Source: Octopus vulgaris
Lineage: Eukaryota
NCBI GenBank assembly: GCA_951406725.2
Contig: OX597820.1
Span: 69,440,001 to 69,504,000 of the forward strand
Direction of reading: 5' to 3'
Length of the DNA: 64,000 nucleotides
Shown: piece by piece, positions 33,143-54,317 of the stretch
How the letters are laid out: each line of letters opens with the position of its first letter
How positions within the stretch are numbered: the first letter of the stretch is position 1
Notes under the pieces: generated by a model
The model's input: the letters and a program-made list of their open reading frames with translations, nothing else
The model's database searches: none
What the model was told of the DNA's origin: nothing
Translations under genes and position numbers: made by a program

Positions 33143-33698
33143 GAGTGAGAGAGCAGTGCATGCCATTAAAGTGACACTGGGGTAAAATATACGAAGCCCA
33201 GTACATACATCATTACTACCTGTCTGATAAGGTACACCCGGTATATGCATCACAGCCATATGTGCACGACATAATGATCTCATATTAAGACAAACAGCGC
33301 ATGAACTTGCAGGTGGGGGGCCCAGTTAGAATTTTCTTCTGGTCGAGTAGCCCATCTCGTTCAAAAGGTCCCTGAATGAGGATTGTTTAAGGATGTTGAA
33401 CGAACCACCCATGTTTACAAAGGTGAATTATCCAAACCTCTAAGAATTCATTTCCACACGCGGATATGATGCTCTCCCACTACTTCTGCTCGTGATCAGA
33501 GATGCACATATCGTCAGCCACTAAGGGACATGGTCAACTGGTTATGGTCAAACAACTGACAAGCAAATCTGTGGTATTGAGCAGAATATTTGCTGTAGCC
33601 CACCATTTTCAGCAAGACAAAACAATGTACATGATAACACTTCCAATCAACTAAGATCAGCAGCCATAAGAACCACTGCCTGGTACTGCACCAGGGTA
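33143..33698 (-). mobile_element. Group D ~560-bp non-coding repeat, full-length copy 1, in a (TAA)n tract
   Basis: Collinear with 45014-45529, 53236-53552 and 53947-54255. Strand inferred from which end the truncated copies retain. Confidence 0.8.
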
Positions 33699-34745
33699 TT
33701 TATTATCATAATAATAATAATAATAATAATAATAATAATAATAATAATAATAATGATAATAATAATGATAATAATAATAATAATAACAATAATAATAATA
33801 ATAATAATAATAATAGTAATAATGATAACAATAATAATAATAATAATAATAATAATAATAATAATAATAATAATAATGATAATAAAAATAACTAGTCGGC
33901 AAGGTTTCAGAATTGTTACCGCCCGTAATATAATGATCATCATTTCCTACGTCTGTACGCTCTGAGCACAAATACTGCCGATGTCGCGTTTGTCTTAGCT
34001 CAGCTGAACGAAATCCGAATTTATGTTTAACAACGGGAGCAACATATAAAAAAAATACAATGCAATTCCAAACTTCATCACGCTCTCTCATTGCGAATTT
34101 TTTTCAATGCAATGCAACAAACGATTAAATTAAATATCAAGTGTTAAGTATTTATAATGTCATTATGTGTCTATATATGTGTGTGTGTGTCTCTCTCTCT
34201 CTCTCTCTCTCTCTCTCTATATATATATATATATATATATATATATATATATGTATATGTGTCTATGTATGTATGTATGTATGTATGTATGTATGTATGT
34301 ATGTATGTATGTATGTATGTATGTATACGTACCTATGTATGCATTTATAATATTCCCACCATGTCATTTATTATTGACATGTTCAATGGCACATTAATTA
34401 AGGGAAATGAAACGTCTGTATTTTGTCTTTCTCTTTTTTGTAGATTATTTTCTCCTCGTTCTGAACAAATATACAAGCCAATTCACAGTGCTTAGAACAC
34501 TTCTTGCTAAAAATTATGCTAAATTATCAAAATTCATATATTGCACGTTGCTGAGGTGTCGAAATAGTGACTAAATAGAAAAATGCATTTAACATAGATT
34601 TCCCGAACTAATATGCGCTTATATACGCATCATGTATATATATATATATATATATATATATAAAAAAAACATTTTTCATAAAACGAATGGTATACACCTG
34701 GTAGCTTACTGGTAAAGCACGGTCACTTTCACAGAGATCGTTATG

Positions 34746-34877
34746 TATATGGCAAGTGAAAGACAGAAGATAGAATATACGAGAATTTATTATTAATCAC
34801 GACAATCGTTTCGGCACATCTAGTAATTAATAGTAAATGCTCGTATATTCCATCTTCCGTCTTTCATTTGCCATATA
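34746..34877. repeat. ~55-bp-arm inverted repeat, probably Penelope-derived
   Basis: Arms 34746-34800 and 34823-34877 with 6 differences; loop contains acaatcgtttcgg (reverse complement gaaacgattgt). Confidence 0.85.
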
Positions 34878-35408
34878 TATATATATGCTTATATATATAT
34901 ATATGTTTATACTTATACACGTACGCATGCATGTATTTATATATATATATATATACACATATTTATGTATGTGTATAGACACACACACACATACATGCAT
35001 ATATAAATACACAGCAGCGTATTTGGGTGTGTGCGTGTGTCTGCCTGTACATACATTTCTAAGCATGTACATGCAGAGTCATACTTCCATCCACGTTCAC
35101 TCACACATACATACATATAGATACACATATTCAGAAACACACACACACACATACACATACATAAACACATATCCATACACTCACTCAATTACAAAGGCGC
35201 ACACACCACACAAAGTGGCACAAAACCTTATATTTCAGTTGAATGAAACACACTGTACACATAAAAATGGGTTAATGAAATTCCGAGACGTTGGGAATGT
35301 TTGATCAAATGATTTTTATTGCAGTTTAACTTCCTTTTTGTTTAAGTTGTAATTCAATTCTTCTTGCAAATGATCAACTTCTTATCAAGTATTTTTGTTT
35401 GTTTTCAG

Positions 35409-35550
35409 GAGAAGCAATAAGATTGGCTCGGGATTTCGGTTATTTGTGTGAGACAGAATTTCCGGCGAGGCAATGTGCAGAATACACATGCAGGCAGTAT
35501 ACAGATCCAACTGAGCAGCACACACGTAAAAACATGATCCTAGCGACTAA
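35409..35550 (+). CDS. TFAP2: AP-2 coding exon (142 nt), helix-span-helix
   Basis: gttttCAG acceptor, AA|GTGAGT donor; (G)[46 protein letters not shown](K); phases fit. Absent from the ORF track. Confidence 0.97.
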
Positions 35551-35917
35551 GTGAGTTCGTTTTATATTTTTGTCTCTGTATATGTATAAGTGTGTGTGTG
35601 ATTGTGAGTTCTTCGTGAAAACTGTGTATATGCAAATAGGTAGGTATGTAGATACGTGCGTACGAGCTTCTGCATATATTAAAAGTGTATATTAATACTT
35701 GCATACATGTAATTAGTAAGGGATTTCTCCAGACATCTACCGGTTTGTTCACAGTTAGGTATTGAAAATAGGTTATTGAACGGTTACATATATAAAAGCG
35801 AATTAAAGGTAATGCTAATGGTACTTCGCAATAATCTTTATACATACATGCATACATACATATATACATATATAATACATACATACATATATATATATGT
35901 ATATATATACATGTATA

Positions 35918-36065
35918 TACGACGGGATTGTTTCCGTTTCCGTCTACCAAATCCACTGACAAGGCATTGGTCGGCCCAAGGCTATAGTAGAAGACACTTC
36001 CCCAAGGTACCACGCAATGGGATTGAACCCGGAACAATGTGGTTGGTAATTACCTCACAGCCACT
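35918..36065 (-). mobile_element. Group A SINE 5' half
   Basis: Reverse complement of 26547-26706 (taccaaatccact...ggctatagtagaagacactt...gaacccggaac...cacagccact). Confidence 0.88.
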
Positions 36066-53009: not shown

Positions 53010-53216
53010 TTAAAATTTTGGCACAAGGCCAGCAATTTAGGACAAGAGAGTAAGTCGATTACATCGACCTGTGTGCTCAAATGGTACTTATTTTATCGAT
53101 CCTTAAAGGATATAAGGCAAATTCGGCCTCAGCAGAAAATGAACTCAGAACATAAAGACGGACGGAAGACCGCTAAGCATTTTGGCCGGCACGGTAACGG
53201 TTTTGTCAGCTCGCAG
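53010..53216 (-). mobile_element. Group B SINE
   Basis: aaattttggcacaaggccagcaattt...ggtacttattttatcgatcc...gaactcagaac...ccgctaagcattt...tgtcagctcgc. Confidence 0.85.
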
Positions 53217-53235
53217 CATTTATTATTACTATTAC

Positions 53236-53552
53236 TGAGAGCAGTGCATGTCATCAAAATGAAACTGTGGTACAAATATACGAAGCTCAATATACCTATT
53301 GTGACTACCCTTGTGATAATGGTACCCCGGATAGAAGCATCACAACCACATTGCGTGGCATGTTGAGCATATATCAAGATCAACAGAGCATGACATTGCA
53401 GATGGGGTTGAGTTAGATTTTCTTCAGGTTGAATAGCTAATCTCACTGAAAAGTTTTGTTTAAGGATGACTGAAACACCCATATTCCTAGGGGTGAATTA
53501 TTCAAACCTCTAAAGGTCGCTCTCAACATCTGGTTATGATGTTCCCCCACTA
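53236..53552 (-). mobile_element. Group D repeat, truncated copy 3
   Basis: Keeps the gagagcagtgcatg end next to tattattactatta; stops at gttcccccacta. Confidence 0.8.
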
Positions 53553-53726
53553 ATCATAGACTGTTATGTTTGACACTCTTAGTTCCACATCTTGTTTTCA
53601 TTCTTCTTCTTCTTCTTCTTCTTCTTCTTCTTCTTCTTCTTCTTCTTCTTCTTCTTCTTCTTCTTATTATTATTATTATTATTATTATTATTATTATTAT
53701 TATTAATACTACAAGTAGTAGTATTA

Positions 53727-53930
53727 AGGCGGCCAGCTACCAGAATCGTTAGCACACCAGGCTAGCGGTATTTCCTCTGTCTCCGTGTTTGAGTTCAAGT
53801 TGGCCGAGGTCATCTTTACCTGTCATCCTTTCAGGATCGATAAATCAAGTACCAATTACACACTGGGGTCGATGTAATCGATTGATCCCCTCCCCCAAAT
53901 TTTCAGGCCTTGTGCCTATAGTAGAACGGA
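53727..53930 (+). mobile_element. Group B SINE
   Basis: aaggcggccagctaccagaatcgttagc...tcatcctttcaggatcgataaatcaagtacc...ggccttgtgcctatagtagaa. Confidence 0.85.
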
Positions 53931-53946
53931 TTCTTATTATTATTAC

Positions 53947-54317
53947 TGCGTGGCAGGGAAGTGCATCCCAGCAAAGTGACTCTGAGGTACAAGTATACGA
54001 AACCCGATACACCCATCCTGACTACCCTCCTGATAGGAGTACACTAGGCACATGCATTACAATGATATCAAGATAAACAGTGCATGACCTTGCAGATGGT
54101 GCCCAGTTAGTTAGAATTTTCTTCAGGTCCGGTAGCCCATCCACGACAGTATACCCATCATGACTACAATATGTGCGCGACATAGTGACCTCATATCAAA
54201 ATAAACAGCACAGGACCTTGCAGGTGGGGGTGCAGCTAGAATTTTCTTCAGGTCGATTGGAAGTGTTATCATGTACATTGTTTAGTCTTTGTATAAAAGA
54301 TGGTCTACAGCAAATAT
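53947..54317 (-). mobile_element. Group D repeat, rearranged copy 4 (internal duplication plus inverted distal segment)
   Basis: 53947-54143 collinear; ~54147-54255 repeats an internal part; 54255-54317 is the reverse complement of ~33586-33648. Confidence 0.8.

Follow-up and report, generated by a model that had tools for sequence, protein, structure and literature searches.

The stretch considered here, referred to as the window, comprises 64,000 nucleotides of Octopus vulgaris DNA (contig OX597820.1, positions 69,440,001 to 69,504,000 of the forward strand; G000:C7:69440001-69504000 in a genome of 2.8 Gb). It holds four copies, D1 to D4, of a repeat termed element D, together with remnants of Dong elements, which are long interspersed elements (LINEs) of the R4 clade. 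D is a real, discrete, non-coding repeat of 557 nt with its sense strand on the minus strand of the window, and it is best read as a passenger of the kind represented by Sadhu and EhSINE1, likely mobilised in trans by Dong. The consensus to which D positions refer derives from 30 sequences among the 40 best matches in the genome. The following features of the window bear on this reading.

33087..33142, minus strand: (TAA)n target tract that adjoins D1 at its 3' end as well as a neighbouring repeat resembling a short interspersed element (SINE)
33143..33700, minus strand: D1, full length (consensus 1-557), 90.2% identical
33197..33244, minus strand: site that corresponds in D1 to a long hairpin predicted near the 3' end (consensus 457-504, loop GGGUA); the hairpin is decayed in D1
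33428..33597, minus strand: segment of D1 equal to consensus 104-273, also found in a Chapaev3-like miniature inverted-repeat transposable element (MITE) elsewhere in the genome
44946..45013, minus strand: (TAA)n tract adjoining D2 at its 3' end
45014..45530, minus strand: D2, old and near full length (consensus about 10-552), 76.6% identical over 10-538
45548..46145, minus strand: 3' remnant of the young Dong family A, consisting of the endonuclease end of the open reading frame (ORF), 97% identical in amino acids to an intact copy, and the 3' untranslated region (3'UTR)
46357..47697, minus strand: pieces of an older, different (third) Dong-like family, 37-65% identical in amino acids to family A
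52233..52986, plus strand: 3' remnant of Dong family B, a broken ORF end and 3'UTR followed by (AAT)n
53236..53553, minus strand: D3, consensus 218-551 only, 77.5% identical, its 5' break without adjoining (TAA)n
53947..54142, minus strand: 3' piece of D4, consensus 344-555, with an internal deletion
54159..54258, minus strand: duplicated piece of D4, consensus 353-451
54253..54317, plus strand: inverted 5' piece of D4, consensus 51-115

A preliminary description of the locus had reported four related copies without coding capacity or terminal inverted repeats (TIRs), all abutting (TTA)n. Self-comparison of the window recovers all four, together with (TTA)n tracts that lie on the plus strand at the same end of every copy. 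D has no ORF (the longest stop-free frame, taken from stop to stop in any frame, is 59 codons), its termini are not inverted, and no terminal direct repeat is seen in the consensus. The termini of the copies are only partly as described: D1 is complete and D2 nearly so, but D4, said to lack merely its far end, is rearranged: consensus 344-555 is accompanied by another copy of 353-451 and by 51-115 in inverted orientation. In a random sample of 880 kb, AATAATAAT starts at only 0.09% of positions, so the flanks in the window are not due to chance. Both flanks of D consist of (TAA)n, so that a target-site duplication (TSD) cannot be delimited. The polarity of D is that of the Dong remnants at 45732-46145 (minus strand) and 52233-52899 (plus strand), as had been noticed. 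D2 (77%) is situated inside the tail of the much younger Dong A remnant (97% in amino acids), which argues that their adjacency reflects a shared target and not joint movement.

Across the genome, the exact 3' terminal motif of D has 14,805 matches and the exact 5' terminal motif 7,638, compared with 3 and 0, respectively, for the reversed controls. An evenly spaced sample of 880 kb contains eight D 3' ends, which corresponds to about 25,000 copies, and the exact count corrected for retention of the 15-mer (kept by 8 of 20 copies) gives about 37,000, so that the overall estimate is 25,000-40,000 copies. Public contig sets drawn from nine studies and six organisms contain 73-98% of the D words sampled, and the whole element is covered in four sets from four organisms. 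Junctions were counted on the first 100 matches listed for each end, all on contig C1. The base triplet that follows the 3' end is AAT in 90 of the 100 listed and a variant triplet in 10, with (TTA)n in none, which bears out the proposal that insertion into (TAA)n is site-specific and stranded. Ahead of the 5' end, (TAA)-type repeats occur in about 82 of the 100 listed, in variable register. The possibility that D is merely the long 3'UTR of an autonomous LINE was rejected, as no extension into shared coding sequence was found among the 100 5' junctions listed, 100 non-standard heads listed and 51 profile hits. D is not a long terminal repeat either, given the lack of a terminal direct repeat, and it is also not a MITE, a tRNA-derived SINE or a ribozyme element.

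Loss of sequence from D is strongly one-sided. Of 30 copies anchored at the 3' end, 20 are interrupted before the 5' end is reached, and in 11 of these the break lies directly against AAT repeats, whereas 4 of 30 copies anchored at the 5' end are interrupted short of the 3' end, none of them against AAT. Internal deletions or inversions account for two of the four 3'-losses (both internal deletions) and for about three of the 20 5'-losses. This asymmetry, which the preliminary description had anticipated, identifies the minus strand of the window as the sense strand of D and would fit target-primed reverse transcription. Furthermore, about 39 of the 100 listed non-standard heads (716 in all) are tandem duplications of the head (1-12, 1-22, 1-69, 1-86, 1-131), joined directly to AATGCCC. 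Such junctions indicate that the first base of D is set without help from the target, and the duplications suggest template jumping. The same kind of head duplication is found in Dong C copies (L210, L214, L218), and template jumps have been reported for R2 (PMC3414825). Two further loci show tandem arrangements involving D: about 12 tandem copies of D 1-69 stand ahead of one full-length D at L374 (G000:C1:30146500-30150500), and a 4-kb tandem duplication (99.8%) at L373 (G000:C3:20473500-20483000) contains a D copy.

Dong is reported to target TAA (PMC3812793, PMC7998251) and to occur in octopus (PMC9115989, PMC13282606). Intact single-ORF Dong elements of 1,334 and 1,284 codons are present in the genome with (TAA)n at both ends; their ORFs carry a reverse transcriptase and a zinc knuckle, and their best PDB matches are R2 proteins. 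The 3' ends of Dong A, B and C stand in the same AAT register as the 3' end of D. At least 12 distinct Dong 3'UTR types ending at AAT-type repeats were recovered, and in the loci examined, which were partly selected for D and Dong, all recognisably coding families that recurrently end at (AAT)4+ are Dong. The partnership proposed in the preliminary description is therefore likely on the grounds of shared TAA target, polarity and register. The ages of the elements are also compatible with it. Identities span 79-98.7% for D in unselected loci (up to 99.5% overall), 81-99.8% for Dong A, 70-100% for C and 83-95% for B, and the age range of D thus overlaps those of all three families, as expected for activity alongside intact Dong elements. 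No frame above 550 codons is left among 150 scored copies of Dong B. Since D spans 79-99.5% while B has no long ORF left, several Dong families would have served in turn, and recent D copies likely used Dong A, C or another young family.

The Dong families themselves have several features in common. Unrelated families share a CCNAG-hairpin-CTYGG element about 60 nt from the 3' end (e.g., L061:6677-6721, L055:2075-2118, L207:3180-3223, L024:2204-2247), and the B and J families share another hairpin with compensatory changes; these hairpins are candidate recognition elements for the reverse transcriptase. The 5'UTRs of Dong A and C (L183-L200, L201-L220) both start with GGACGT motifs, which strike us as reminiscent of internal promoters of the downstream promoter element type, and full-length A and C copies often carry (AAG)n additions. 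D has neither the motifs nor the additions.

The preliminary description had gone further and derived D from Dong as a short internally deleted element (SIDE) with a shared 3' end. This origin does not hold for the families examined (A, C and partial B for the 5' side; Dong 3'UTRs for the other), as both ends of D lack homology to them. On the 5' side, no match to D was found in the 5'UTR of A, in 3.4 kb at the 5' end of C or upstream of the longest B copy; the comparison with B covered 10 regions, of which only L381 reaches the N-terminal region, and the B 5' end is not defined. The C 3'UTRs were taken from other loci than the C 5' regions. On the 3' side, a comparison of D with 110 Dong 3' ends by nhmmer --max gave no match at E<=10, and none of the matches to 16 representative 3'UTRs, all of Dong and none of other LINE clades, was significant after correction. 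A covariance model of the CCNAG-hairpin-CTYGG element finds copies of Dong A, C, E and H and misses D, and the model of the B/J hairpin, on which B scores 61.6 bits, recovers none of the D copies of 18 loci at E<=10. The likeness of the terminal tacc..ag to Dong is not significant either, being as good in 3 of 300 shuffles for one B copy and in 153 and 116 of 300 for two others, and the hairpins that had been cited as alike are weak (-5.0, -4.2 and 0.0 kcal/mol for 33154-33179, 45593-45607 and 52923-52939, respectively).

Some residual likeness was detected. D 461-485 matches the hairpin of the Dong B UTR at 18 of 25 ungapped positions, and the GGUA loop is similar. The match has p 0.014 relative to shuffled sequences, a post hoc value without correction, and p 0.08-0.10 when gaps are allowed, and the likeness of the predicted 3' hairpin of D to that of Dong B is not significant. 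D also has a 12-nt match to the E-type UTR (family-wise p ~0.02 over the last 60 nt, 0.59 over the last 120 nt), and a gappy alignment to a single I-type UTR (family-wise p 0.007) falls mid-element, the wrong position for a tail. The B and E matches, together with the report that divergence of R2 SIDEs from the parent elements can reach 30-40% (PMC3414825), would suit a SIDE or 3'-tail SINE of an unsampled or extinct Dong family that has diverged beyond recognition. Such a descent is nevertheless very unlikely, given the failure of the 5' regions and of the B/J model to find D, and given that the best-supported loose ends listed from eight public runs are D variants, microsatellite flanks and MITE junctions, with no LINE junction among them. 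D thus acts like a SIDE or SINE, yet belongs to neither class as judged on the Dong families examined.

D is not a SINE in the strict sense, as it lacks a tRNA, 5S, 7SL or snRNA head, RNA polymerase III (Pol III) boxes, a LINE-derived tail and poly(A). As had been stated, no A or B box is found, and D contains three internal T4 runs. ARAGORN identified 0 tRNA genes in 6 D loci, and Rfam gave nothing on D in the window at the gathering threshold and only chance matches by E-value (E>=4.2). The ribozyme screen that the preliminary description had called for yielded no core like that of hepatitis delta virus (HDV) and no hammerhead core on either strand with our own descriptors, and none in Rfam. 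The predicted sense fold of D beats all 60 shuffles (z -3.55), compared with z +0.95 for the antisense strand. A claim of structural selection on the pairing was dropped: a first test found 10 of 10 transitions compatible (p 0.004) but was circular, because it was conditioned on pairing in the consensus. A direction-aware retest was not significant (p 0.14-0.45), and the pair 253/319 is not cleanly compensatory, with A-C in 33 of 144 copies.

The source sequence of D has remained nearly static. Old copies (38 with <92% identity) yield a consensus that departs from the young one at 5 non-CpG positions of 557, so that the source changed by about 1% while its copies decayed by 8-20%. At the reported substitution rate of 0.0036 per million years (PMC13282606), a decay of 10% would correspond to about 28 million years. 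The age classes form a short ladder, an older variant set is 99% the same, and a subfamily of 16 copies with 13 diagnostic changes coexists with others. The common subfamily variants all lie in 241-557 and none in 1-240, with 10 of 14 in 241-400 (p ~0.001). Such constancy of the source suggests either that the RNA has a function or that the rule by which it is recognised is very narrow. The small difference between old and young consensus, the lack of subfamily variants in the first 240 positions, the lack of an internal promoter motif and the predicted folding in sense only would also agree with the copies being dead retrocopies that Dong made from a single host gene, or a small number of them, for non-coding RNA (ncRNA) with an external promoter, as opposed to a self-propagating family. 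However, no Rfam family matches D, the 16-copy subfamily exists alongside others, and unique flanks were seen in only 4 of the 100 listed non-standard heads (716 in all), the three sites inspected resembling ordinary insertions. Tens of thousands of copies is moreover a high number for retrocopies and counts against this origin, which we consider unlikely.

Part of D is shared with a second repeat, of about 490 bp, that was found via loose ends in public contigs and has 210 exact motif matches, which appear clustered in some chromosome regions. It is a MITE with imperfect TIRs of about 120 bp, CAC..GTG termini and TWA flanks. These termini and flanks are also those reported for Chapaev3 DNA transposons (PMC4079192), whereas D itself lacks TIRs. 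The MITE (L221-L250, e.g., L233 about 1117-1625; L144 8045-9042) carries D 104-273 at 96.5% identity between the consensus sequences, individual MITE copies being about 87% identical to D. D copies older than this level of identity hold the segment without the six variants of the MITE as a set, which favours, but does not prove, capture of the segment by the MITE from D.

Taken together, D is probably an RNA that is copied into DNA in trans by Dong proteins through target-primed reverse transcription. The Dong endonuclease would nick the (TTA)n strand, and the reverse transcriptase would start at the 3' end of D and sometimes stop early or jump back to D head fragments. Transcription of D would require a novel internal promoter or precise processing, given that Pol III boxes and a ribozyme are lacking. 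Several observations weigh against this mechanism. The profile search of the Dong 3' ends and both hairpin models failed to find D, and the retest of structural selection was not significant. G/A-rich extra 5' bases are present in 8 of 10 full-length Dong A copies versus 1 of 61 full-length D copies, so the junctions of the two are not identical; their near-absence from D may reflect an uncapped RNA or the use of another Dong family. In the window, the same microsatellite also flanks a SINE-like repeat in opposite polarity (about 32880-33086, 52986-53200 and 53720-53933). With its tRNA-type head, this repeat is presumably an octopus SINE, and its polarity implies that another TAA/TTA-targeting enzyme may exist. 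Finally, selective binding to the 3'UTR of their own element has been reported for R2-type proteins (PMC11194090), and the repeats listed for one octopus genome include 51 Dong-R4 families (PMC13282606), of which the roughly 12 UTR types sampled here cover only a part.

The opposite polarity of the SINE-like repeat and the occurrence of inverted 5' pieces (window D4, L265, L314) would also be accommodated if D were mobilised by a different enzyme, such as a microsatellite-targeting LINE of the apurinic endonuclease (APE) type or a Penelope-like element. Inversions are rare, however (1 of 30 in each of two sets), D contains no hammerhead core, the target is TAA and not TA, and the polarity and register of D equal those of Dong, which makes such an enzyme extremely improbable. 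A broader reading, which keeps Dong as the source of the machinery, can be offered only tentatively. D would then be a structured RNA under strong constraint which, although devoid of a Dong 3'UTR, of a Pol III head and of a ribozyme, has exploited the site-specific Dong/R4 machinery over tens of millions of years and through changes of partner. It would represent either a new type of RNA parasite, recognised by its shape, of LINEs with a restriction-like endonuclease, or a new housekeeping RNA of cephalopods of which Dong makes retrocopies.

Two further features were annotated in the window.

38177-38566, plus strand: C-terminal exon of an AP-2 transcription factor (Pfam TF_AP-2, E 4e-15)
55893-56177, plus strand: weak GIY-YIG match (E 0.006, below the cut-off)

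D1 may lie antisense in an upstream intron of the AP-2 gene, and the GIY-YIG match is probably a Penelope-like remnant. Elsewhere, a common element with a tRNA-like part ends at (AAT)n (L210 about 3625-3693), and the sequence that follows (AAT)n at L012 from 2105 contains a hammerhead-like CTGATGA core; the two possibly form one Penelope-related unit.

No description of a non-autonomous Dong partner or of a D-like repeat was found in the literature, as judged mostly from titles and listings and excluding subscription papers and Repbase Reports. The accessible portions of PMC11481361, PMC4824008 and PMC5804259 name no Dong-partnered SINE. One octopus annotation comprises 1,279 unclassified SINE and 1,102 unknown families (PMC13282606), so D may well be catalogued without a name. 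If a de novo library already includes it among the unclassified SINEs, the novelty lies in the partner and the mechanism and not in the sequence. New here are the near-static source of D and the sharing of bases 104-273 with a MITE.

Among known systems, EhSINE1 of Entamoeba histolytica has a LINE partner that is placed in the R4 clade. Like D, EhSINE1 is non-coding and 500-600 bp long, and the endonuclease of its partner is restriction-enzyme-like; it differs in sharing about 70 bp of its 3' end with EhLINE1 and in having TSDs and internal repeats (PMC2996970), whereas D is microsatellite-specific and has no significant shared end with the Dong families tested. The Sadhu elements of Arabidopsis are, according to the available text, likewise non-coding, unlike known ncRNAs and devoid of A and B boxes, with a defined start and a partner LINE inferred from target sites only (PMC2848041). 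However, Sadhu has poly(A), TSDs of 7-16 bp and 39 copies with highly divergent members (PMC2848041), as opposed to the (TAA)n target, the absence of poly(A), the tens of thousands of copies and the near-static source of D. The R2 SIDEs of Drosophila are reported to resemble D as short, non-autonomous, site-specific passengers of LINEs with a restriction-like endonuclease and in their template jumps at 5' junctions, but they retain the HDV-like ribozyme and 3' end of the parent, both of which D lacks (PMC3414825). With the Dong/R4 clade as reported (PMC3812793, PMC7998251, PMC9115989), D has in common the (TAA)n target, polarity, 3' register, 5' truncation and head duplications, and it differs in having no ORF, no shared UTR and no G/A-rich 5' additions. 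The known passengers of R2/R4-type LINEs, R2 SIDEs and EhSINE1, thus retain partner sequence, and these LINEs are regarded as template-stringent. A high-copy passenger with the Dong target and without detectable Dong sequence would, if true, imply a relaxed or shape-based choice of template. D therefore bears on which RNA cargo the proteins of site-specific retrotransposons accept, and the intact young Dong ORFs make a direct test possible.

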